Part shown: piece after piece, positions 19,224 to 64,000 of the stretch
How the letters are laid out: every line of letters begins with the position of its first letter
Position numbering within the stretch: the stretch's first letter is position 1
From: an uncultured Chitinophagaceae bacterium
Lineage (GTDB): Bacteria; Bacteroidota; Bacteroidia; Chitinophagales; Chitinophagaceae
NCBI GenBank assembly: GCA_963790435.1
Contig: CAWBOI010000006.1
Coordinates: 97,758-161,757, forward strand
DNA length: 64,000 nt
Direction: 5' to 3'
Made by a program: the position numbers and the translations under genes
Notes under the pieces: model-generated
Told to the model about the DNA's origin: nothing
Database searches by the model: none
What the model saw: only the letters and a program-made list of their open reading frames with translations

Positions 19224-19259
19224 GTTTGTGTTTGATGGTAACTGCTAACTTTTTATAAT

Positions 19260-20190: not shown

Positions 20191-20234
20191 TTCGTTCGAT
20201 TAACAATTAACAATAAGTCAATTTACAATAGCTG

Positions 20235-20306
20235 CACGGGTACTAGGATTCGAACCCAGATCGAAGGTTTTGGAGACCTCTATACTAACCGTTGTACGAT
20301 ACCCGT
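20235..20306 (-). tRNA. tRNA-Trp(CCA)
   Basis: ACGGGTA/TACCCGT acceptor stem, anticodon loop CT-CCA-AA, T loop TTCGAAT. Confidence 0.95.
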
Positions 20307-20371
20307 GTAAGAAAATCAGCTAATCAACCATTTGCTGATTAGCTGATTGTATAAAGATAAGAACTTCTTTC

Positions 20372-21559
20372 TTATTTCAGAATTTCAGTTACCTGACCAG
20401 CACCTACTGTACGACCACCTTCGCGAATAGCGAATTTCAAACCTTTTTCCATGGCTATTGGCTGAATTAGTTTTACAGTTAAGCTGATGTTATCACCAGG
20501 CATTACCATTTCTGTTCCTGCTGGCAATTCAACTTCACCGGTAACGTCGGTTGTACGGAAGTAGAACTGAGGACGGTATTTATTGAAGAATGGAGTATGA
20601 CGGCCACCTTCTTCTTTGCTCAACACATACACTTCGCATTTGAATTCAGTATGCGGTGTGATAGATTTTGGTTTTACGATAACCATACCGCGGCGGATAT
20701 CTTTCTTTTCAATACCACGCAATAACAAACCTGCGTTATCACCAGCCTGACCTTCGTCCAATAATTTTTTGAACATTTCAACGCCGGTTACTACCGAGTT
20801 CAATGGTGTTGGAATCAAGCCTACAATTTCAACCGCTTCACCTACTTTCACAATACCACGCTCGATACGACCTGTTGCAACAGTACCACGACCCGTGATA
20901 GAAAATACGTCTTCCACACTCATCAGGAATGGTTGATCAATCGGACGGGGAGGTAATGGAATGTAAGAATCCACAGCATCCATCAAATCTTCAACGGCTT
21001 TTACCCATTTTGCTTCACCGGCTAATGCACCGGTAGCAGAACCCTGGATGATGGGTGTGTTATCACCGTCAAAGCCATTTTTAGAAAGAATTTCGCGGAT
21101 TTCCATTTCTACAAGTTCTATCAATTCAGGATCATCCACAAGATCAACTTTATTCATAAACACTACCATGCGTGGAACGCCTACCTGGCGTGCCAACAGG
21201 ATGTGTTCGCGTGTTTGCGGCATTGGACCATCAGTAGCAGCTACTACAAGGATGGCACCATCCATTTGCGCAGCACCGGTAATCATGTTTTTCACATAAT
21301 CGGCATGACCCGGGCAGTCAACGTGCGCATAGTGGCGGTTTACAGTTTCATATTCAACGTGTGCAGTATTGATGGTAATGCCACGTTCCTTTTCTTCAGG
21401 AGCGGCATCAATTTCATCATACTTTCTTGCCTGAGCCATACCCTTGCTTGCAAGAATGGTGGTGATGGCGGCTGTTAATGTTGTTTTACCGTGGTCTACG
21501 TGACCAATAGTTCCAACATTTACGTGAGGTTTTTCCCTCTTAAAGGTCTCTTTAGACAT
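20372..21559 (-). CDS. tuf: Elongation factor Tu
   Basis: [37 protein letters not shown]. Confidence 0.99.
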
Positions 21560-21721
21560 TGTATCGGTTTTTTATGTTGTGTATTTATTAATTAAATAAG
21601 GTCTGCAAGTAACTGAATTGCTTGCAAACAATACCATAATATTTGTAATTGAAAATTGATAATGGTTAATTGATAAGAATCCAATCATCACAATTAAAAA
21701 GTAACCATCAACAATAAAAAG

Positions 21722-21793
<72 letters not shown>

Positions 21794-21878
21794 TTGCCAA
21801 ACAGATGATAACTGACCGTTGTAAACTGACAGAAAAAATGCCTGTCATGCGTCATCTGTTTTCTGTCATCTCAAAGAG

Positions 21879-21951
21879 AGCGGAAGACGAGAATCGAACC
21901 CGCAACCTATAGCTTGGAAGGCTATCGCTCTACCAGTTGAGCTACTTCCGC
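21879..21951 (-). tRNA. tRNA-Gly(TCC)
   Basis: GCGGAAG/CTTCCGC stem, anticodon loop CT-TCC-AA. Confidence 0.95.
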
Positions 21952-22010
21952 ATTTTTTGTGAATAGAACAATGTTAATTGTCAATCGAAAATAACCATTA
22001 GCAATAATTG

Positions 22011-22093
<83 letters not shown>

Positions 22094-22178
22094 AAATCAT
22101 TTTTGATTTATGAATTCGGAATTATGACTGATGTACAATAAAAGTCATAATTCCCAAATCAGCAATTACAAATCTACG

Positions 22179-22251
22179 AGCCACTTGTCGGAATCGAACC
22201 AACGACCTACTGATTACAAATCAGTTGCTCTACCAGCTGAGCTAAAGTGGC
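22179..22251 (-). tRNA. tRNA-Thr(TGT)
   Basis: GCCACTT/AAGTGGC stem, anticodon loop TT-TGT-AA. Confidence 0.95.
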
Positions 22252-22282
22252 AAACAAAGAACTGCCCGTTTTTTCGGGATTG

Positions 22283-22290
22283 CAAAGGTA
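22283..22290 (-). promoter_or_regulatory. -7 element of the tRNA-tuf operon
   Basis: TACCTTTG about 30 nt upstream of tRNA-Thr(TGT). Confidence 0.7.
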
Positions 22291-22367
22291 GAAGAAAACT
22301 TTATCTGGCAAAATATTGTACTCTTTTTTCTGAGGTTTTCATAAAAGAAATTACTGGCAGCACCAAC

Positions 22368-23747
22368 TTACCTTTTCAAAATAACTTTATCTTCTTTCCA
22401 TTCTATTTGTAAGTTCTTCTTACTGTTTGGAAATGGCTGAATAAAATCAACACTATAATTTTTAGAAAGATAAAACAACTCACCTCTCGACAAAATGACA
22501 ACACTTCGCATCGAATCTTTTTTAATGATCTTAACAGCACTTTCAAAGCCGTTGCGAAATATAAATGCGCCTCTGTATTCACCAGGAAGATGAGTGCAAA
22601 AAATTGTATCGGCACTGCCTGTCTGATACAAGGCTGAAATGGTTGCTTCGCTTACTTTACTGCTTCTCCTAAAATTGTCATAGCTCAATCGCAATGCAAT
22701 GATTTCTGCAATGAAAAGAAGATAGGCAAGCCATAGTTTTCTTTCAAAAACAAAGGCAATAATTTGCATGAAAAAAATAGCCAAAAACAAAGAAGGGAAA
22801 TATAAAAACCGTTCTGATTCAGTATCGTGCGTATCAATGCCAAGAGGAATGACCGGCACTAACGATAACAAAAAACAGACGCCGCTAACAACAATAACTG
22901 CATTTATTTTTTTACGAAAGAAAAAAAGCAACAATACAATTACGGCAAAAACAAAGGCAACTGTAAACACAAACAGTAGAGACGACTGCATGGGAGCAAC
23001 AACAGAACGCGCAACGAGCGCCGCCGCATTTTTGCACCAGCGGAGAAAGTTAAAATCAGTCATTCGTGCCGAGCCATAAGGCGTACCAATGATGTCGTTG
23101 GTAAACCAATATCTTCCCCCAAAATAAAGTGCAAAAACAAACCCGAAACCAGCGGCATAAAGATAGGAAGTTCGTTTGTTTTTGTTTGTTTTTGCCCAAA
23201 CTAAAACAACGATTATTAATGGCAATATCCACGCTTCTTCATAACTGAACAAAGCAAGCGCAAAGCAAAGTAATGAGCAGAGATACGACCAAACGGTTGT
23301 CTCTTTTCTTACAAAAAAAAGAATGCTTAGCAAAGAAAACAGTGTGCACAAAATAGCACCTCTGCCAACAATCCAAAATATGGCTTCACTATGAAAAGGA
23401 TAAAATAGAAAAATAAGGCTGGAAAGTAATGCCAGCTTGCCTGATAGCGCATTGTTGTTCCGTAAACGGAAGATGTTTTTTGCCAGAAAATATACGCACA
23501 GCACAGAAGCAAAATGGAGCACGAAACTGGTAATGTGAAAGCCGGTTGCATTCAATTTCCAAATGGAATAATCAAGATACAAAACGGCATCGGAAAGAGG
23601 CCGATAGGAATGTAGAATATGAGCAGGTTGCAAAGAAAAAAGCAGACTGTCCCAGTCATCACTTAAAAAATAAAGCTGCTCTGGCGGGTACAAAAAAACG
23701 AACAGGCCAAACGCCATTACTAAATACAAAGCATGTTTCCTGTTCAT
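22368..23747 (-). CDS. Multi-pass membrane protein, probable GT-C fold glycosyltransferase (GT39/ArnT/TMTC-like)
   Basis: About 10-11 TM segments, first-loop acidic motif SDDW followed by YRPLS, ERFLYFP motif, soluble C-terminal tail. Confidence 0.6.
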   Translation of the reverse strand: MNRKHALYLVMAFGLFVFLYPPEQLYFLSDDWDSLLFSLQPAHILHSYRPLSDAVLYLDYSIWKLNATGFHITSFVLHFASVLCVYFLAKNIFRLRNNNALSGKLALLSSLIFLFYPFHSEAIFWIVGRGAILCTLFSLLSILFFVRKETTVWSYLCSLLCFALALFSYEEAWILPLIIVVLVWAKTNKNKRTSYLYAAGFGFVFALYFGGRYWFTNDIIGTPYGSARMTDFNFLRWCKNAAALVARSVVAPMQSSLLFVFTVAFVFAVIVLLLFFFRKKINAVIVVSGVCFLLSLVPVIPLGIDTHDTESERFLYFPSLFLAIFFMQIIAFVFERKLWLAYLLFIAEIIALRLSYDNFRRSSKVSEATISALYQTGSADTIFCTHLPGEYRGAFIFRNGFESAVKIIKKDSMRSVVILSRGELFYLSKNYSVDFIQPFPNSKKNLQIEWKEDKVILKR

Positions 23748-23823
23748 ACATCGTCAAAGATATTGGAGAGCAAGTTTTTTGCATAAAAACAAAAAAGCCC
23801 CGTCGTAACGAGGCTTGTATTAT

Positions 23824-24126
23824 TTAAGCGGAAGCTAATTTTTCTTTTTTTCTTTTGATCTGGTTGATGGCAGAATACAAAGCGCTGTCGAACGATTCTT
23901 CAAACGACTTTGATGAAGCTTTTACAAACAATTTTTGGCGCGGCACGTGCACCCGAATTTCCACAATTTTATCTTTTAAATTATGTACCAAATTGTCTAA
24001 CTTCAAAAACACATCCACCTTGATAATCCGGTCGTGAAAGTTTTCTAACTTTTGAGTTTTGTCCATAACATAACTCAGCAGTTTGGAATCGGCATTGAAG
24101 TGAACCGACTGACAATTTACATTCAT
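23824..24126 (-). CDS. raiA: Ribosome hibernation factor RaiA/HPF
   Basis: SVHFNADSKL, KIVEIRVHVP, SFEESFDSA; xerC-raiA synteny. Confidence 0.88.
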   Translation of the reverse strand: MNVNCQSVHFNADSKLLSYVMDKTQKLENFHDRIIKVDVFLKLDNLVHNLKDKIVEIRVHVPRQKLFVKASSKSFEESFDSALYSAINQIKRKKEKLASA

Positions 24127-24306
24127 AATGATTGATTTTTATTGTGAGAAAATAGGAAGAATATTGGTTGAATGATGTAGTTTATGAAGGACAAGTTAGT
24201 GAATGGTTTGAATAAAAAATTGACAAAACAAAATTTTAATTTCTTTTTTATGTTGTGTGCATAAAAAAAAAGTTTAAGGCGCAGAAAATCACACTTCCAT
24301 TGCTGC

Positions 24307-25203
24307 CTAAGCTTTTGGATGCGCCTGCTTGTACACTTCTTTTAATTTTTCGATGGTGAGATGCGTGTAAACCTGCGTTGAAGCCAAACTCGAATGACCT
24401 AATAATTCTTTTACGGAATTCAGCTCAGCACCGTTGTTCATCAGGTGCGTAGCAAATGTGTGTCGTAAAATGTGCGGGCTCCGCTTCTCAATACTTGTGG
24501 TTGCACCCAAATATTTTTTTACAAAATTATACACCATTTTGGGGTATAAAGGTTTGCCTTTGCTATTGGTAAAAACAACATCCGTGTGGTTGGCAACAGG
24601 CTTTTGTGCAATGTAATTTTTAATAGAACTAAGTAGTTCATTCGATACCGGAATGAGGCGTTCTTTGTTCCCTTTGCCCAGCACTTTTATTTGGCTGTAA
24701 CTCCAATCAATGTTGCTTTCTTTCAGGTTGATTAATTCGCTCAAACGTATTCCGGTTGAATAAAAAAGAAGCAAAACCAAACGTTGTGTTCGTCCATCAT
24801 GGTCATCAGGAAATTCGATGTTTTGAAACAGTTTCTGCATGTCTTTTTCATCAACAAACTGTGGCAACCGCTTACTGATTTTGGGCGAAACAATGCTCTG
24901 CATTGGCGATTGTACAATAACGCCCTGCTTCAGTAAGTATTTAAAAAAAGATTGTAAGGCAGAAATTTTGCGGTTGATGCTTTTGTTGGTTAAGCCTTCT
25001 TCACTTTTAATATTGGCAAGCCAGGAACGTACCAAAGGCGTTGTGATTTCGGCGGGCAAAGGAGCGTCAAATTCTCTTTCTAAGTAATCGAAAAACTGGA
25101 ACAAATCGGTGTTATATGAAGCCAATGTATAGCCTGAATACTTTTTTTCAAACTGAAGAAACTGCAAAAAACGTTGCGCTTCTGCATTGTGTGGTGTGGG
25201 CAT
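24307..25203 (-). CDS. xerC: XerC-like chromosomal tyrosine recombinase
   Basis: STGIRLSEL, GKGNKER, PHILRHTFATHL, LLGHSSLASTQVYTH; conserved rpsU-xerC-raiA context; start set at MPTPHN. Confidence 0.85.
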   Translation of the reverse strand: MPTPHNAEAQRFLQFLQFEKKYSGYTLASYNTDLFQFFDYLEREFDAPLPAEITTPLVRSWLANIKSEEGLTNKSINRKISALQSFFKYLLKQGVIVQSPMQSIVSPKISKRLPQFVDEKDMQKLFQNIEFPDDHDGRTQRLVLLLFYSTGIRLSELINLKESNIDWSYSQIKVLGKGNKERLIPVSNELLSSIKNYIAQKPVANHTDVVFTNSKGKPLYPKMVYNFVKKYLGATTSIEKRSPHILRHTFATHLMNNGAELNSVKELLGHSSLASTQVYTHLTIEKLKEVYKQAHPKA

Positions 25204-25239
25204 AAAAAATAGTCGTAAAGCTACTGCCTTACGACTATT
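25204..25239 (-). terminator. Hairpin after rpsU
   Basis: aatagtcgtaa...ttacgactatt followed on the minus strand by a T tract. Confidence 0.65.
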
Positions 25240-25261
25240 ATACAACGGCTATTCTAAAAAA

Positions 25262-46359: not shown

Positions 46360-47142
46360 CTATGTAATCATTCTGTCCAGATGCGTGTAGCCGCCATCAA
46401 CAAAAATAATTTGCCCCGTGGTGTGTGAAGAACAATCGCTTAGCAAAAAAACAACGGTGTCCGCAATCTCTTTCGGTTGTGTAAAACGATTGCCCAATGG
46501 TATGTGCGATGTGATGTGATGCAAGGTTTCTTCTGCATTGGTTTGGGCTTCAATCCAGGCAGCATATTGCGGTGTATCTACTTCGGCTGGCAACACTGCA
46601 TTTACACGAATTTGGTAAGGCAATAACTCAACCGCCCATTCGCGCGTCAACGCATTCACGCCACCTTTTGCAGCTGCATAACCCGATGTGTTTCCCTGCC
46701 CGGTTACCGATACTTTAGAACCAATGTTTACAATGCTTCCCTTCGTTTTAATAAGATAAGGTAATGCATAATGAGCCATCGTAAAATACTGAACGAGGTT
46801 AGTGCGCAACGATTGCTCAAAGCCTTTTACAGAGCCGGTTTGAAGCCCGATTTTATCATTGGTTCCGGCATTGTTCACCAGGCCATCAATGCGGTTGTAT
46901 TGTTTGATAACGGCATCAATTAAGTGCCTGCAACTTTCTTCTTCCGTAAGCTCAACAACAAGTGACAATGCGGTTTGTTTTTGCCCGATTATTTCATTTG
47001 CCAGCGCACTGCTTTTCTCTTTATTTCTATCGGCAATTACTACAATGCCACCTTCCCTTGCTATCAACCTGCAAGTTGCTTCTCCAATGCCACTCGCGCC
47101 ACCGGTTACAATATATACTTTGTTCTGCAGATGTAAGTTCAT
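46360..47142 (-). CDS. SDR oxidoreductase, L-fucose dehydrogenase-like
   Basis: TGGASGIG, NNAG, YAAAK; translationally coupled (4-nt overlap) to the mutarotase gene. Confidence 0.8.
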   Translation of the reverse strand: MNLHLQNKVYIVTGGASGIGEATCRLIAREGGIVVIADRNKEKSSALANEIIGQKQTALSLVVELTEEESCRHLIDAVIKQYNRIDGLVNNAGTNDKIGLQTGSVKGFEQSLRTNLVQYFTMAHYALPYLIKTKGSIVNIGSKVSVTGQGNTSGYAAAKGGVNALTREWAVELLPYQIRVNAVLPAEVDTPQYAAWIEAQTNAEETLHHITSHIPLGNRFTQPKEIADTVVFLLSDCSSHTTGQIIFVDGGYTHLDRMIT

Positions 47143-49110: not shown

Positions 49111-49299
49111 ACTGTTCGTTTTTATTGAAGGATAAAATGCAAATCAGAATGCGATTACACAACAATGTTAGTGATAAACGATTGTCTTAACACATTATTT
49201 GCAGGAAATGGATTTTGCTGCTTTTGTTTTTGCCGATATTTTAGTTTGTTGCACAAATGATTTATCAATTTGATTGCTTATTTTCTTTTTATTTTGAGT

Positions 49300-50061
49300 A
49301 TGAAATGGTTTGCAGAAAAGGGTTCTATTGTTCGTAAAATCTGGGGTAGCGGCGATACCATCCTGTTTATTTTTGCAGGTTCGGCTGCTGAGTTTGCATT
49401 AAACAAAGCAGTTGACTGGCTCTACTTTACCGGCAGGCTTCCTGCCGATCCGTTAGGTCGTTTATTTTCAACGGTTACTTATGCACGACTGATTGTTTTT
49501 TCGGAAGAAGAAAAAGCGAATGCTGTGATTGATAAGATGGCGTTTATTCACGCAAAAGTAGAAGAGAACCGTGGTTCAAAAATACCCGATTGGGCTTACC
49601 GCGATGTGTTGTTTATGCTGATAGATTATTCCATTCGTGCATATGAAGTGTTGGTAAGAAAATTATCTTATGAAGAAAAAGGCGAAGTGTTCCTAACCTT
49701 CAACAAAGTGGGCTTGCGTATGGGTTTGAAAGATTTGCCCAACACATTTGCTGAATGGTTACTGGCGCGTGAACAACACTTAAATGAAGACACTGTTTAC
49801 AGCCAGTACACCGCAGATTTATTCCGCCAATATAAAAAACACCTTGGCGCCTTTCGCTATTTTTTATTAAGAGAAGGACAGAAGTTAGTCGTGCCAAAAA
49901 GAATAAACAAACTGCTTAGGTTGAGTAACGTTTCGCTGCTCATTCCGGTTGTTTTCGTTTACAAATTGTTTCGTGCTGTGAAGTTAGATTGGTTTTTAAA
50001 AAGCCTTATTTTACCTAACGAATACAAGAAGCAAATTAAAGAGTTAGACGTAGTTTCATAA
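49300..50061 (+). CDS. MpaB/DUF2236 oxygenase-like protein
   Basis: SIVRKIWG, FAGSAAEFALNKAVDWL, IHAKVE, YRDVLFMLIDY; start at ATG 49300. Confidence 0.75.
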   Translation: MKWFAEKGSIVRKIWGSGDTILFIFAGSAAEFALNKAVDWLYFTGRLPADPLGRLFSTVTYARLIVFSEEEKANAVIDKMAFIHAKVEENRGSKIPDWAYRDVLFMLIDYSIRAYEVLVRKLSYEEKGEVFLTFNKVGLRMGLKDLPNTFAEWLLAREQHLNEDTVYSQYTADLFRQYKKHLGAFRYFLLREGQKLVVPKRINKLLRLSNVSLLIPVVFVYKLFRAVKLDWFLKSLILPNEYKKQIKELDVVS

Positions 50062-57951: not shown

Positions 57952-59255
57952 CATTTTCAAAGCTATTGGCGCAAAGCCTTATCTGGCGTGGGTTCTACTT
58001 CATCACTTTGTTTGGTGTGAATGTGATGTTGTCCCGAACCTTACAAGCATCGGGCAGCGGCATTTTATTTTATTTCGTTAACACTTTTTTTATTGTGCAG
58101 TTGGTAGCAAGTGTATGTTTGGAAAACGGACTCACCTTTTTTTCTGCAAGTAGTAAAATTGCATCCTCAAAATTGTTTTGGCTTTGCATATTATGGACGG
58201 CCATTATTGTTGTTCTTCAACTCGTTGTTTTCTGTTTTGCAAATGGCGCTTTTATTGATAAAACCAAAGCCCTATATGCGTTTTGTTACATCACCGGCTC
58301 ACTGCTCATCACATACAGTTCAAACCTGTTTTATGCAGATAAAAACTTTGTTGTACCGAATGTAATTTTATCTCTCTTCAATTTGATGTTTGTTGTTTTT
58401 CTTTTGTTTCCAAATCAAATTTTTGGTGAGGAAAAGTTATCTCGTATTTCCACTTTTTATTTTGCCCTTTTTTTGCTGCAAGGCGTAAGCATTGCAGCCG
58501 CTTATCTGGTTCAAAACCAATGCTGGCGCGAGTTTGCACTACCTCATAAAAATGAGGTCAAACAATTTTTTCGTTATTCAATCACCGTTCTCCTCTTTAA
58601 TGTTCTTTTGTTTTTTGTATATCGTGTAGATTATTATTTTGTGAGATACAGTCCTGTTTGCACCACAGCCGATCTGGGCAATTATATACAAGCCTCAAAG
58701 CTGGGACAGATGTTGCTGGTGGTGCCGCAAATCATTGGCAGCGCAGTGTATCCGCAGGTGTCTTCGGGCAAAGAAATAAGAAGTGTAAGCCGCATTATTT
58801 TGTTGCTGATAAAGCTCATCGCAGTTTTATTCTTCGTTTTGTTTTGCCTTATTTTTTTCATTGGCAAATGGCTCTTTCCTTTTTTACTGGGCAATACATT
58901 TCAGCAAGTGCAAACTCCTTTTTTATTGCTGTTGCCAGGTATTTATAGTCTGGCAATTATATCTTTTGTTTCTAATTTTTTTTCAGGACAAGGCAATGTG
59001 AAAATCAGCGTGCGCGCGGCTTTCATCGCTTTGCTGGTTGTTGTGATTGGTGATTTTGTTTTTGTGCAAAAATGGGGAATCGTAGCGGCTGCTATGGTAA
59101 GCTCGGTAGGCTATTGCATAATGTTTACTCCTTATTGGTTCCATTTTAAAAGAACAGCTAATGTATCGTTCCGGGATTTTTTTAAATTGAACAGCGAAGA
59201 TATTTCGTTAGTGAAAGAAGTGTTTCGAAAAGAAAAAAGAGCATCAACCAAATAA
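57948..59255 (+). CDS. Polysaccharide flippase (Wzx/MOP family)
   Basis: About 12 TMs, YRVDYYFV and LGNYIQASKLGQ; ATG overlaps the APC stop codon (ATGA). Confidence 0.75.
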   Translation: MTFSKLLAQSLIWRGFYFITLFGVNVMLSRTLQASGSGILFYFVNTFFIVQLVASVCLENGLTFFSASSKIASSKLFWLCILWTAIIVVLQLVVFCFANGAFIDKTKALYAFCYITGSLLITYSSNLFYADKNFVVPNVILSLFNLMFVVFLLFPNQIFGEEKLSRISTFYFALFLLQGVSIAAAYLVQNQCWREFALPHKNEVKQFFRYSITVLLFNVLLFFVYRVDYYFVRYSPVCTTADLGNYIQASKLGQMLLVVPQIIGSAVYPQVSSGKEIRSVSRIILLLIKLIAVLFFVLFCLIFFIGKWLFPFLLGNTFQQVQTPFLLLLPGIYSLAIISFVSNFFSGQGNVKISVRAAFIALLVVVIGDFVFVQKWGIVAAAMVSSVGYCIMFTPYWFHFKRTANVSFRDFFKLNSEDISLVKEVFRKEKRASTK

Positions 59256-59315
59256 ACCAATGGCATTGCCATCATTTTTGTTTCAACCATAAATTCTTAT
59301 TCCACATGCTACCAT

Positions 59316-59714
59316 TCATAACGCATCTGCACCGGCTTCCGCAACTTTTTGATCCTGATTCACCAATCCGCCGCTCACGCCAACCGCACCAATAATGTTT
59401 TTCTGAGAATCTTTCAGCAACACACCACCGGGAAAAGAAATCAAGCCACCGTTGGATATTTCAATGCCATACAATGGCTCGCCCGGCTGGGAAAGCTTGC
59501 CTAAATCGCCGCTGTTCATATCAAAAAAGTTGGCGGTTTTCGCTTTTTTTATGGCAATGTCTATCGAGCCTAACCATGCTCCATCCATGCGTACAAAGGC
59601 AACCAAATTGCCACCTCTGTCAACTACTGCAATGTTCATTTGCACTTTACTATCTCTTGCTTTTTCTTTAGCAGCCGCTATTACTTTCTCAGCTTGTTCC
59701 AGTGTGAGGTTCAT
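59316..59714 (-). CDS. GlcG/HbpS heme-binding protein
   Basis: [39 protein letters not shown]. Confidence 0.9.
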
Positions 59715-59916
59715 AAAAAATGAATTTAAAATAAAGGTAAAACCAAAATAGTTCCGTTGTATTGATTTCTATTATCTGCGGTTTGAATGAAAGCAAACCG
59801 GCTCGTTGTTTTTGAAGCAAACATTTTTACTGCGTTCAATTCTTTTTGCAATCATCTTTGTTGTTTGCTTTACATTCTGCCATTCAAGAACATTCATTGA
59901 AATATTCAAACCGTTT

Positions 59917-61140
59917 ATGAACGAACATACATCCTTTACCAGCATGAGTTCTGTGGCTATTCATGCTGTGCAGGCATTGTCTGCTGAACACGCGCATTTG
60001 ACTCCCATCTTTGCCACTTCTACTTTTACTTTCGACAGTGCTGAGCAGGGCATGAACCGCTTTGCCGGAACTGAACAAGGTTATATATACTCCCGGTTTG
60101 GCAACCCAACCATCACCGCAGCAGAAGAAGTAATTGCCAGTTTGGAAGCGTTTCAAATCAACACCAAAAATGGTGAACCACTGCAATTAAAAGCCTTGCT
60201 ACATGCCAGTGGGCAATCGGCTATGGCAACGATGTTTCTCTCATTATTATCTGCAGGCGATACTGTGCTTTCTCACTATTCCTTATACGGTGGCACGCAT
60301 GAATTTTTGTTTCAGTTTCTACCAAAATACAATGTGGCTGCAGTGCTTGCCGATTTAAGAGATTTAGCTGTGGTAGAAGACATAATACGCCAAACACCAT
60401 CGTTGAAGGTGATTCATTTAGAAACACCGGCGAACCCGATGATGCAGTGCTTCGATATTGAAGCGATTTGCACAATAGCAAAAAGACATAATCTCCTTGT
60501 AACGGTTGACAACACGTTTGCAACACCTTACCTGCAACAACCTTTTAAATGGGGAGCCGATTTTGTTTTTCATTCAACCACCAAATTTCTCAATGGTCAT
60601 GGTACATCCATAGGTGGCGTGTTGGTTGGCAAAGACATTTCTTTTATGAAAACAAAAGCGTATAACACCTATAAGTTGTTGGGCGGAACCAGCAGTCCGT
60701 TTGATGCTTACCTGTTGCTGCAAGGCATGAAAACACTGGAAATAAGAATGGAAGCGCATTGCCGCAATGCAATGCGGGTAGCCCACTTTTTAGATGCACA
60801 TCCTGCGATTGCCAAAGTGAATTATACAGGTTTACCCAATCATCCTGATGCTGAAGTTGTACAAAAACAAATGCGGCTACCGGGTGCAGTGTTAAGTTTT
60901 GAATTAAAAGAAGGTTTTGAAGGCGGCAAACGTTTTATTGACCAACTTACGATGTGCGTGCGGGCAGTATCTCTTGGTACTGTTGATACTCTCATTTCTC
61001 ATCCGGCTTCCATGTCGCACTCCGGTATGAAATGCGAAGACCGTTATAAAGCAGGCATTACCGATGGATTAATACGCATGAGTGTGGGCATTGAAAATGT
61101 GAACGATATTTTGAATGATTTGAACAATGCATTGAAGTAA
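59917..61140 (+). CDS. PLP-dependent trans-sulfuration enzyme (methionine gamma-lyase/cystathionine lyase family)
   Basis: YSRFGNPT, SLYGGT, ETPANP, VDNTFATP, HSTTKFLNGH, SLGTVDTL; start at ATG 59917. Confidence 0.9.
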   Translation: MNEHTSFTSMSSVAIHAVQALSAEHAHLTPIFATSTFTFDSAEQGMNRFAGTEQGYIYSRFGNPTITAAEEVIASLEAFQINTKNGEPLQLKALLHASGQSAMATMFLSLLSAGDTVLSHYSLYGGTHEFLFQFLPKYNVAAVLADLRDLAVVEDIIRQTPSLKVIHLETPANPMMQCFDIEAICTIAKRHNLLVTVDNTFATPYLQQPFKWGADFVFHSTTKFLNGHGTSIGGVLVGKDISFMKTKAYNTYKLLGGTSSPFDAYLLLQGMKTLEIRMEAHCRNAMRVAHFLDAHPAIAKVNYTGLPNHPDAEVVQKQMRLPGAVLSFELKEGFEGGKRFIDQLTMCVRAVSLGTVDTLISHPASMSHSGMKCEDRYKAGITDGLIRMSVGIENVNDILNDLNNALK

Positions 61141-61390
61141 GTGTGTGATGAAGTCATTTTTGTTTTTGCCCATATTTATCTTTACTATCCACAGATACAA
61201 CGACCAAACAACAGTAATAAGGAAGGGGACAGTGAAAACGAAAACCTACTGCTTAACAAAGTTGTGAAAATACAAACCTACTAAAAGATAGACGCTCCCG
61301 ATGCAAAGTTTAAGTGATACAATTCGGCACTGCTCCATAAAGTTTTGCGTGTAGGGAAGCTCAGAAGGAGAGATTTGAAGTTTTTGAACC

Positions 61391-61585
61391 AACGGCGAAG
61401 GGCTTTGTGCAGGTGGGGAATTAGCATTCCGTATGCTCGTAACCGAAGTACAATTTATAGATAAATGTTCATTGTTTATTCTATTGCCGAATGTTGCTCG
61501 TCACGCTGGAACTGAAGCCGATGCCTGCACTTAGCTGAAGTAACAATGTCGTGCCCCACTTGCACAAAGCCCCATGTTGTAGGCA
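61391..61585 (-). mobile_element. attC-like long imperfect palindrome downstream of the cassette gene
   Basis: Minus strand: TGCCTAC-AAC-ATG-GGGCTTTGTGCAAGTGGGG ... CCCCACCTGCACAAAGCCC-TTCGCC-GTT; 19-bp arms (61400-61418 and 61554-61572) with one mismatch. Confidence 0.7.
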
Positions 61586-61597
61586 GGTCTATGTCTG

Positions 61598-61957
61598 TCA
61601 GCAACTCCAAAATCTTTTTCGTTTAAAGTCAATTTCAGATGGTCCGTCAGAACAGCCGCCAATTTCTTTTGCGTTCTTGTCCTTGATGCTGTGTCCAATA
61701 ATCCACTTGCCTGTCTTTGTGTGCTTCATTATAACTCCTTCGTCAAGAATGTCACCCTTTTTGCCCGTCAAGTTAGCCTTGCCATTATGAACAACTTTTA
61801 TACTGTCACCCTTGATAATTACTGTACAAGTTGCACCTAAAGATTTTCCGTTCCATTCTGCAAATGCAATAGAGTAGGTGTATATACCGTCCCTTGGCTT
61901 TTGTGCAAGTGTCAATGTACAAATAAAAAGTAAGCAGGCAGTTAGAAATATTTTCAT
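61598..61957 (-). CDS. Small secreted hypothetical protein (119 aa), putative cassette cargo
   Basis: Sec signal peptide MKIFLTACLLFICTLTLA-Q; stop codon 12 nt from the attC-like element. Confidence 0.8.
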   Translation of the reverse strand: MKIFLTACLLFICTLTLAQKPRDGIYTYSIAFAEWNGKSLGATCTVIIKGDSIKVVHNGKANLTGKKGDILDEGVIMKHTKTGKWIIGHSIKDKNAKEIGGCSDGPSEIDFKRKRFWSC

Positions 61958-62070
61958 TTGGTCTTGTATATATATCAATTGTCTGTGTCAACTAAGAAAA
62001 AGGTTGAGAGCAATTGGTAAGTTTCACCTGTCCTGCCATCAATTTAAAACTGTTAAAACCAATTGCCTAC

Positions 62071-62181
62071 AACTCAAATATATACGAAGGTTTTATTTTT
62101 TTCTAGAATTATCAGGAAAATATTTTTCTGTTGATTGTCATTCCTTTATCTCATTTTCCCGCATTTCGTATATTTATTGTT
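62071..62181 (-). mobile_element. Second, degenerate attC-like palindrome upstream of the cassette gene
   Basis: Minus strand: AAC-AAT-AAATATACGAA ... TTCGTATATATTT-GA-GTT-GTAGGCA; arms at 62076-62088 and 62165-62175 with a 2-nt bulge. Confidence 0.5.
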
Positions 62182-62246
62182 TTGATTCGTAAATACAACT
62201 TTCCATAAAATCATTTCTTCAAATTTGCACAAAACCAAACCGCAAC

Positions 62247-62285
62247 AAAAAAGTTCCGAACAATAGAGTCATTCGGAACTTTTTT
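62247..62285 (-). terminator. dnaJ terminator
   Basis: aaaaaagttccgaa ... ttcggaactttttt. Confidence 0.85.
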
Positions 62286-62302
62286 TATTCGATTCTTACA
62301 AT

Positions 62303-63451
62303 TTAAGTAAACACTTCCTTCACCCTTTCAAAAAAGCTCTTTTCGCTTTTGCCCGGCTGCGGTTTAAAATTGGGGCTGTTGTTTAGTTTCTCCAACATGG
62401 TTTTTTCTTCCGAGGTCAGGTTTTGCGGCGTCCATACATTCACATGAATCAACTGGTCGCCACGCTGATAACCCTGCACTTCAGGGAAGCCTTTGCCTTT
62501 CAGCCGGAATATCTTTCCGCTCTGCGTTCCGGGCGGTATTTTTATTTTAGCGCGACCATCAATCGTAGGTACTTCTGTGTTGGTTCCAAAAGTGGCTTCC
62601 GGAAAAGTAATGTGGAGTTCGTAGGCTACATTTAAGCCATCACGGTGCAATTCTTTGTGCGCTTCTTCTTCAATCAGAATCAACAAATCGCCAGGCGCAC
62701 CGCCACGTTCACCGGCATTGCCTTTTCCGCTCATGCTCAGCTGCATGCCTTCCTGCACACCGGCGGGAATGTCAATGCTGATGGTTTCTTCGTTGTACAC
62801 CCTGCCTTCACCTTTGCAATTGTTGCATTTTGCCGTAACCGTTGAGCCTTCGCCGTTGCAGGTAGGGCAGGTGCTTACGGTTTGCATTTGCCCTAAAAAT
62901 GTATTCGACACTTTCCTTACCTGGCCACTGCCATGACAGGTAGAACAGGTTTGAATGCTGCTGTTGTCTTTGGCTCCGCTGCCGTTACAAACATTGCAAG
63001 GCACATATTTTTTTACCTTGATGTTTTTGGTAACTCCCTTCGCCATCTCTTCATAGTTCAGCTTTATTTTTACGCGAAGATTGCTGCCGCGCGAACCTCG
63101 GCCACGGCTGGCTCTGCCACCGCCGAACATACTGCCAAACATGCCTTCGCCAAAGATGTCGCCAAACTGACTGAAGATGTCTTCCATGTTCATGCCGCCA
63201 CCAAAGCCGCCACCACCCATACCAGGCGCAAACGCCTGGTGACCAAAGCGGTCGTACTTTGCTTTTTTGTCTCCATCGCTCAACACTTCGTAAGCTTCGG
63301 CAGCTTCTTTGAATTTTTCTTCGGCGCTTTTATCACCCGGGTTTCTGTCGGGATGATATTGCATCGCCACCTTGCGATACGCTTTTTTAATTTCATCGCC
63401 GGAAGCCGATTTGCTCACGCCCAGAACTTCGTAATAATCTCGTTTTGTCAT
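62303..63451 (-). CDS. dnaJ: Chaperone DnaJ
   Basis: J domain with HPD, G/F-rich region, four CxxCxGxG repeats. Confidence 0.98.
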
Positions 63452-63452
63452 G

Positions 63453-63605
63453 CCCTAATCCGCCTAAGGCGGAAAGTTTTAAAATGTACGCCCCAGCTCC
63501 TAAAGGGGAGCCAGAAAGCTTTGATTAAATTTATTGTCTTTTTAATTAAACAGTTTTTAAAACACTTACGTTGTCCCCAACTTCCACTTTAGGCGGACCA
63601 GGGCC
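63453..63605. repeat. Degenerate REP-like units between grpE and dnaJ
   Basis: tccgcc-taa-ggcgga palindrome, ctcctaaaggggag and ctttaggcgga related units. Confidence 0.5.
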
Positions 63606-63616
63606 TTGTCTTCTCC

Positions 63617-64000
63617 TTACTTCCCAACCACCACTTTTGCAAAGCGGATAAGTTTATCGTTTAACGAATATCCTTTTTGCACTTCGTCCAGCACTTTTCC
63701 TACCTGATCTTTTGTAGGTGAAGGAATTTCAGCAATGGCTTCATGCTTCTCAACATCAAAGTCCTGCTGCTTGCTTTCCATCCCTTTCAAACCCTTTGCT
63801 GATAAGGCGTTGCGCAGTTTGTTAAATATTAAAAGAATGCCTTCTTTTATTTGCTCAACATCATTGCTTTGTTTCATTTGCTTTTCTGCACGGTCGCAAT
63901 CATCCAACACATCCAGCAGCGAAACGATAATGTCTTTACCTGCTGTTTGAATCAGTTCCATCCGCTCTTTTGCATTGCGGCGTTTGTAGTTTTCAAACTC
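63617..64000 (-). CDS. grpE: Nucleotide exchange factor GrpE, 5'-truncated by the window edge
   Basis: EFENYKRR, FDVEKHEAI, QKGYSLNDKLIRFAKVVV; upstream of dnaJ. Confidence 0.95.
   Translation of the reverse strand, partial: EFENYKRRNAKERMELIQTAGKDIIVSLLDVLDDCDRAEKQMKQSNDVEQIKEGILLIFNKLRNALSAKGLKGMESKQQDFDVEKHEAIAEIPSPTKDQVGKVLDEVQKGYSLNDKLIRFAKVVVGK

Follow-up and report, generated by a model that had tools for sequence, protein, structure and literature searches.

The closest described counterparts of the locus analyzed here are the attC sites of integron cassettes, such as the attC of aadA7 and the Vibrio cholerae VCRs; the attI site and Pc promoter of classical integrons; attC clusters and single attC sites without an integron integrase, termed CALIN and SALIN, respectively (bioRxiv 10.1101/2022.02.28.482270; Loot et al., bioRxiv 10.1101/2022.09.11.507474); and the attG sites described by Loot et al. 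(bioRxiv 10.1101/2022.09.11.507474), which are genomic GWT sites of IntI1-3. Genome surveys find integrons nearly absent from Bacteroidota, and the IntegronFinder 2.0 survey reports one complete integron in Bacteroidetes, in Salinibacter ruber (bioRxiv 10.1101/2022.02.28.482270). The papers found on integrons and attC sites in Chitinophagaceae deal with beta-lactamases or the hosts of resistance genes, and to judge from titles and abstracts they contain no description of the arrays reported below. The whole stretch of DNA analyzed here (the window, 64 kb) and its relatives show canonical cassette logic in Chitinophagaceae, with G|TT junctions, cassette starts complementary to their own R'', and covarying attC stems; this integron-like system is real.

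Our subject is an AT-rich element in the spacer between dnaJ and a neighboring cassette gene. Like known attC sites, it is an imperfect palindrome bounded by AAC and GTT, has its G|TT crossover in common with the next cassette, is one site followed by various cassettes, combines conserved ends with a variable center, and in other contexts appears to lie directly after a gene. It differs from them in being very AT-rich (26% GC), in having a stem of only 9 + 2 bp without predicted stability, in matching RYYYAAC/GTTRRRY no further than the triplets, in following no cassette gene here, and in carrying an AT-rich tail of about 15-20 nt between the stem region and R'. As in CALIN and SALIN, one clear attC and an apparently worn one occupy a housekeeping intergenic spacer, with no integrase found in the 64-kb window. 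Unlike in those, the host belongs to the Bacteroidota and the cassette content is polymorphic between co-occurring strains, and therefore the site probably is, or recently was, active in trans. With attI and Pc the element shares a fixed place at the head of an array, a variable adjacent cassette, and a promoter-like element reading into the cassettes, but it has no adjacent intI, its ends are related to those of an array attC, and its geometry is that of an AAC...GTT palindrome. The attG sites likewise lie between chromosomal genes, away from any integron platform, and cross over at GTT; they are unstructured, nonmodular native DNA that recombines in double-stranded form, whereas the element is a portable 130-nt module with attC-like ends.

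The AT-rich palindrome in the dnaJ-metY region

The element lies in the 345-nt spacer (30% GC) between dnaJ and a small gene, in the following arrangement.

59806-61140, plus strand: metY-like gene, followed by a 460-nt spacer before the small gene
61957-61598, minus strand: small gene for P0001, a 119-aa secreted protein without a Pfam or NCBIfam family
62247-62285, minus strand: dnaJ terminator, a perfect 14-bp stem (AAAAAAGTTCCGAA, 11 nt, TTCGGAACTTTTTT) outside the palindrome element
63451-62303, minus strand: dnaJ, with grpE beyond it at the window edge

The DnaJ encoded in the window is 88-90% identical to DnaJ of Ilyomonas MAGs. Among 80 GTDB relatives, homology ends at the dnaJ stop codon and nothing is shared downstream of it, and neither the small ORF (P0001) or a homologue of it nor metY was found within 6 kb of dnaJ. 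An empty site was found neither in the dnaJ-downstream regions of these relatives nor in the contigs of metagenome runs X1 to X4. The original prediction had called for a comparison of orthologous dnaJ-downstream regions; the 80 relatives supplied the comparison but not the uninterrupted version that was sought. A search of Rfam gave no real match in window positions 58000-64000.

On the plus strand, the palindrome reads AAC (62071-62073), TC, AAATATATACGAA (62076-62088), 76 nt, TTCGTATATTT (62165-62175), ATT, and GTT (62179-62181). Its arms pair over 9 exact bp (62080-62088 with 62165-62173), followed by a 2-nt bulge (62078-62079) and two more pairs. When the sequence was re-read, the letters, the arms, the 2-nt bulge, and the AAC/GTT ends were all as originally predicted, and the distance to the dnaJ terminator, given there as about 65 nt, was measured as 66 nt. 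In attC terms, the parts of the palindrome are as follows.

62088 to 62076, minus strand: L'-like arm TTCGTATATATTT, within the AT-rich tail AAAACCTTCGTATATATTTGA
62165-62177, minus strand: L''-like arm AAATATACGAA, which pairs with 62076-62088
62179-62188, minus strand: R''-like end GAATCAAAAC, which includes the plus-strand GTT at 62179-62181

The 9-bp AT stem closes a 76-nt loop. Folding both strands as single-stranded DNA, the check proposed with the idea of hairpin recognition, gave structures no better than those of shuffled sequences: z-scores ran from -0.4 to -0.55 (-0.51, -0.55, and -0.42), with minimum free energies of -6.2 to -8.2 kcal/mol, and the shuffles were equally stable. For comparison, the GC-rich attC at 61385-61590 folded at -32 kcal/mol with a z-score of -2.7. 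Shuffled controls, which the original prediction had named in its refuting condition, gave a divided answer. The arms taken without an anchor match chance, an exact inverted repeat of at least 9 bp being present in 43% of dinucleotide shuffles of the 345-nt spacer, but the anchored geometry is rare. We defined the latter as AAC at the junction, the start of a stem of 9 bp or more no further than a few bases away, and a GTT just past the second arm; it was passed by 0.5% of 3000 shuffles, a statistic that was defined after the element had been seen and is indicative only. Apart from the element, of the 151 AAC sites in the window's intergenic DNA, only the real attC and a terminator-like hairpin at 19247 passed, the anchored geometry amounting to 1 of about 145 other intergenic AAC sites. 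The search for further copies of the arms, confined to the 64-kb window, returned no other TATATACG-armed palindromes.

The R'' of the element reads TCAAAAC. It has the AAC/GTT triplets only, without the ATTGC box, and the element lacks both the extended R box of the GC-rich attC family described below (ATTGCnnnnAAC / GTTnnnnGCAAT) and the GC-rich L stem of that family. Nor does it follow the rule by which a cassette start complements the R'' of its own attC, since the 5' boundary GTTGTATTTAC and the R'' GAATCAAAAC agree at 6/9 positions. This failed complementarity is compatible with a relic, whose original cassette may be lost. We also considered a 126-nt cassette without an ORF, lying between G|TT points at 62199 and 62073. 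Such a cassette is possible, but its R'' fails to complement its start. The palindrome arms, invariant in every variant seen, leave no covariation to score.

The cassette junction and the cassettes exchanged there

Three features define the cassette next to the element.

62071-62073, minus strand: G|TT crossover triplet (AAC on the plus strand), the junction of fixed flank and variable cassette, located by the start of homology and by metagenome divergence
61394-62073, minus strand: cassette A, with a leader (62072-61958), the ORF (61957-61598), and its own GC-rich attC (61586-61391)
61391-61393, minus strand: downstream G|TT crossover, the R' of the cassette A attC; the X1 contig rejoins the window at 61394

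DNA homology to three other loci (L084, L081, and L082) has a sharp start at 62073, where the minus strand reads GTTGTAGGCAATTGG, and ends at ~61577-61594, the DNA upstream of 62073 being unrelated, and metagenome contigs diverge from the window at 62063-62071 into cassettes designated B to E. The AAC at 62071-62073 is a true cassette boundary, and with the homology break at 62073 in three loci and the divergence of the contigs, the claim that the palindrome and the cassette boundary have this AAC in common holds.

At other loci (L088, L135, L137, L103, L089, L120, and L085), the small gene is found within arrays in which short genes of one orientation alternate with repeats of 95-240 nt. Each repeat is built like an attC, with R'' (..ATTGCnnnnAAC), 2-4 nt, L'' (GGGCTTTgyGC..), a variable center, L' (..GCrCAAAGCCC), 5-7 nt, and R' (G|TTnnnnGCAAY). 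Every cassette of L103 starts with 10 nt that are exactly reverse-complementary to the R'' in its own 3' attC; judged from the sequences, this 10-nt complementarity is the mark that recombination at G|TT leaves. Compensatory changes are seen in 14 of the 23 stem pairs when 14 sites are aligned over their ends only. Half-profiles built for nhmmer from 15 attCs of this GC-rich family matched the minus strand of the window at 61388-61432 and at 61544-61586 (E about 1e-6 to 4e-7), the sole such site in the 64 kb, and 61391-61586 (minus strand) is a full member of the family. The same half-profiles gave no match at the AT-rich element. A covariance model of a mini-attC (R1, ends only) missed even the true attC, with its central region of ~120 nt, and says nothing on the AT-rich element. 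The GC-rich attC family, which makes up large arrays in metagenome contigs of Chitinophagaceae, was also seen at L123, and L135 has 13-15 sites in 12 kb.

Cassette A begins with the 10 nt GTTGTAGGCA (62073 to 62064), which reverse-complement TGCCTACAAC (61585 to 61576), the R'' of the GC-rich attC, without a mismatch. That attC is therefore cassette A's own, and the two palindromes are therefore not interchangeable. The suggestion that either element could be the cassette's own site has to be given up in favor of the GC-rich attC at 61391-61585, with R'' complementarity at 10/10 positions.

The gene in cassette A encodes a small secreted protein with a signal peptide, three conserved cysteines, and a C-terminal FWSC. 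Its close homologues number 377, and among the matches listed most are 67-88% identical; the named ones are nearly all labelled as Chitinophagaceae or its genera, with one labelled Verrucomicrobia. The homologues are cassette-borne in many unrelated contexts, L083 among them: in L081 the gene stands beside transposases and a SIR2 gene, and in L084 (2470-5271) the P0001 cassette stands by itself, with a Shedu-type SduA_C gene on one side and a DUF6364/PIN toxin-antitoxin pair on the other. In the latter locus the cassette is followed by another, different palindrome, which is imperfect and has a 3-nt bulge (ATAACTACGCCG-TTGGTA ... TACCAA-CAG-CGGCGTAGCTAT). That the conserved unit is merely a gene with a structured 5' leader was an idea dropped once the arrays of attC repeats were seen. 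The leader of cassette A is conserved and 115 nt long, and the stretch at 62003-62073 (minus strand) starts with GTTGTAGGCAATTGGT and has an inverted copy, ACCAATTGCTCTCAAC, 39 nt later. This copy resembles the R'' box (ATTGCnnnnAAC) and may be the trace of a fused mini-cassette or an RNA hairpin.

We aligned Logan contigs of public metagenome runs to the region. A contig from X1 (7631 nt, depth 11.8), from a co-occurring sister strain, matches 60700-61394 and 62070-62700 at ~99% identity, with 61395-62069 replaced by 1171 other bases. On the cassette strand, the insert starts GTTG|GCTGTAATTAGACATGGAC and ends ..CTTCTGCAATGCTTTAAC|GTTG; it is a different cassette (B) with its own attC between the two G|TT points of cassette A. 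Both of these ends are also seen in X4. The window's own form is present in X2 and, at lower depth, also in X1. Across the runs, five or more different cassettes adjoin this one flank. The flank continues as GTTG|GCTGTAATTAG in X1 and X4; in X6 it is exact over 62071-62164 and then reads GTT|AGCCACAATTAT (at greater length, GTT|AGCCACAATTATTATGACAG); in X7 it is followed by GTTGTAGGCA|GTGTATG (GTTGTAGGCA|GTGTATGTGCAAT), and in X8 by GTTGT|GCGCTACC (at greater length, GTTGT|GCGCTACCTTATGC). The cassette starts in X1/X4 and X6 fit the R' consensus of the arrays, GTTRnnnG(C/T)AAY, and those in X7 and X8 match its first bases only. At the dnaJ-metY locus itself, cassettes A and B alone are proven; for C, D, and E, a further copy of the element elsewhere is a possible location.

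Whatever the cassette order of an ancestral array, form A or form B, or both, must have involved a further recombination at the element after its formation, unless the alleles were moved by homologous exchange. The polymorphism shows that cassette turnover between co-occurring strains is live or recent at a locus without a nearby integrase, and it supports the DNA to the right of the AAC acting as a fixed recipient or partner site for variable cassettes. As a separate observation, the X7 contig reads GTTGTAGGCA GTGTATGTGCAAT CCTACAATG after the junction, diverging at 62063, and has a complementary R''-like box almost directly after the start; it looks as if the cassette A gene were deleted or the cassette empty.

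A recurring module and its likeness to an AT-rich array attC

The element is part of a longer module, whose parts are listed here.

62069-62202, minus strand: whole conserved module, probably an attC-like relic or docking site, recurring in X8 and X9
62074-62098, minus strand: conserved 3' end, invariant in X1, X6, and X8, containing the AT-rich tail AAAACCTTCGTATATATTTGA with the arm TTCGTATATATTT
62099-62144, minus strand: variable center, holding all eight listed substitutions of X8 and X9 and both X1 substitutions within the element
62082 to 62075, minus strand: TATATTTG, a match to the -7 box TAnnTTTG, ending 2 nt before the crossover and facing the cassette

The module (134 nt) recurs at about 93% identity in X8, on a 322-nt contig, and in X9, both soil metagenomes from other studies. 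On both sides of it, the X8 and X9 DNA is unlike the window, even at an 80% threshold. Neither end of the module (62069-62098 and 62145-62202) differs from the window in X8 or X9, the palindrome arms lie inside these conserved ends, and we estimate the chance that 8 random positions would span 46 or fewer of the 134 nt at about 0.003. On the cassette strand, the X8 and X9 sequence before the module reads GAT GAT ATT GAA GGA TTA CTA AAA AAG TAA AG|TTGTATTTACG. An ORF may end here, and attCs usually sit at just such a place; with nine codons visible, this is only a hint. A separate 304-nt contig from X1 has a 33-nt near copy (3 mismatches) of 62062-62094 in another context.

The ends of the module also resemble those of an attC in an array. 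L095 is an AT-rich cassette array with a P0001 homologue, and two of its junctions are preceded by tails resembling that of the element: AAAACTTTCGCATATTTCTGA|GTTGTAGC and GAAACTTTCTTATATTTTTAA|GTTAGTG, compared with AAAACCTTCGTATATATTTGA|GTTGTAGG in the window. The best local alignment of the element's tail and R' with the first attC of L095 (attC #1) has 24/28 identities, a score reached by 0/300 shuffles. At the other end, AGTTGTATTTACG (62200 to 62188) agrees with AGTTCTATTTACG of the same attC at 12/13 positions, and GAATCAAAACAAT agrees with GATTCAAAACATT at 11/13, a match of at least 11/13 being found in 1% of shuffles; these 5' motifs are ordered differently in the element and in attC #1. 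The L095 site folds well (z -2.4). A look-up of the small protein of L095 for longer contigs returned nothing.

TAnnTTTG is the -7 promoter consensus of Bacteroidota and has a frequency of 0.0009 per nt per strand in the intergenic DNA of the window. By its sequence and position, TATATTTG is a putative promoter, which may have a Pc-like role.

Candidate roles of the element

Taken together, these data make it fairly probable, in our judgment, that the element is a worn attC of the AT-rich subfamily, left by an earlier cassette, that now gives the array a fixed docking site and has a promoter-like -7 box ending 2 nt short of the crossover. The original prediction of a recipient site, either attI-like or a previous attC, gains support from the five or more cassettes at the same flank, from the module in another context, and from ends like those of an array attC, and a previous attC is the best reading of it. 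The gene of the earlier cassette would be gone, and the element would be the first unit after the dnaJ terminator, in a two-unit array of the CALIN/SALIN type without a nearby integrase. Cassettes would be joined at its 3' G|TT (62073|62072), the element staying and the next cassette changing. A recombinase encoded elsewhere in the genome may act in trans, as integron integrases do, the element pairing with the folded attC of a cassette and strands being exchanged at G|TT. The 9 + 2-bp palindrome would be a decayed L''/L' stem, and the TAnnTTTG box would transcribe whichever cassette adjoins. Several observations speak against a worn attC, namely, the hairpin at shuffle level, the lack of the family R box beyond the AAC/GTT triplets, the 6/9 complementarity at the 5' boundary, the half-profiles that do not match the element, the other order of its 5' motifs in L095 attC #1, the proof of no more than cassettes A and B at this locus, the invariant arms, and the lack of a cassette gene before the element in the window. 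The weak fold, the missing R box, and the invariant arms also count against a functional hairpin, and structure-based recognition of a single-stranded hairpin by its extrahelical bases, as in the original prediction, would be tentative.

More tentatively, this portable attC-like module with its own promoter box could be a landing pad, the functional equivalent of attI and Pc without an integrase, that exchanges cassettes of an undescribed Bacteroidota integron lineage in natural Chitinophagaceae populations with a recombinase supplied in trans. If the AT-rich element really is a partner site with a promoter, it would be a testable substrate for finding the recombinase of the system, would let one ask how degenerate a working attC can be, and would help to explain the exchange and expression of isolated cassettes outside integron platforms.

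We regard it as improbable that the element is instead an attI-like site, double stranded and integrase specific, which would be a primary site with a built-in promoter, parted from its recombinase gene, and in which the palindrome would be irrelevant. The place of the element as first unit of the array and the variable adjacent cassette are as expected at attI, a stretch of about 21 nt left of the crossover has been conserved across three contexts, the -7-like box faces the cassettes, and a weak hairpin fits a double-stranded site. However, in L095 tails of the same kind occur within array attCs placed after ORFs, the module in X8 and X9 seems to come after an ORF end, and no recombinase gene is adjacent. 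Pfam found no integron integrase in the window among 21 of the 22 ORFs of 250-480 aa and the 132-aa ORF adjoining the site, a scan that left out the ORFs at 46360-47142 and 49270-50061. Over ~10 kb on the metY side, all ORFs belong to nonrecombinase Pfam families, except one 342-aa ORF without a Pfam match, and the dnaJ side holds dnaJ with its terminator and then grpE at the window edge. The sole tyrosine recombinase found in the window (24307-25245) scored 302 bits as XerC and 115 bits with the integron-integrase model, whose cutoff is 265; it is the housekeeping xerC, 37 kb from the element.

The surroundings of xerC (20234-25245, minus strand) have a housekeeping gene order, with xerC, hpf, a 459-aa ORF without a Pfam family, tRNA-Thr/Tyr/Gly/Thr, tuf, and tRNA-Trp. 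In L085 (2571-4639, minus strand), an IS91-family transposase gene overlaps the end of a gene for a 308-aa tyrosine recombinase, whose best NCBIfam matches are XerA and integron-integrase-like, below cutoff; the pair is inserted in the cassette array just past the P0001 homologue. This recombinase was rejected as the array integrase given its pairing with the IS91 transposase.

We likewise doubt that the element is ordinary intergenic DNA used once as an attG-type site, requiring little more than GTT, with a palindrome that is a chance AT-rich repeat. Integron integrases do use GWT sites without attC or attI structure, and isolated cassettes (SALINs) are common (bioRxiv 10.1101/2022.09.11.507474); the unanchored statistics and the fold energies are at chance level, and the 80 GTDB relatives share nothing downstream of dnaJ. 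Against this reading stand the recurrence of the flank outside this context as a 134-nt module at 93% identity, the ends that match an array attC, at least one further cassette (B) at exactly the same junction of this locus, and the rarity of the anchored geometry. A pure chance repeat had been our first reading of the palindrome and was abandoned given the anchored control, the polymorphism of the junction, and the recurrence of the module in two other runs (X8 and X9). That the element has no part in recombination and serves the dnaJ 3' region as a regulatory sequence or small RNA, cassettes having landed beside it by accident, is very unlikely: the conserved ends with a variable center, the place directly past a terminator, and the promoter-like box would suit it, but there is neither an Rfam family match nor a fold signal, in X8 and X9 the module occurs without a tie to dnaJ, and its boundary is the cassette crossover.

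Two minor observations concern the metY side of cassette A. Near the end of metY, GTTGTATCTGTGG..ATAAATAT (61172-61201) resembles the 5' end of the element, GTTGTATTTACG..ATAAATAT (62170-62199), at 21/30 positions, with a local alignment p of about 0.05. Two copies of a 19-nt direct repeat (GTGAAAACGAAAACCTACT / GTGAAAATACAAACCTACT), 32 nt apart, lie in the region 61232-61282, where the X1 strain carries small indels.
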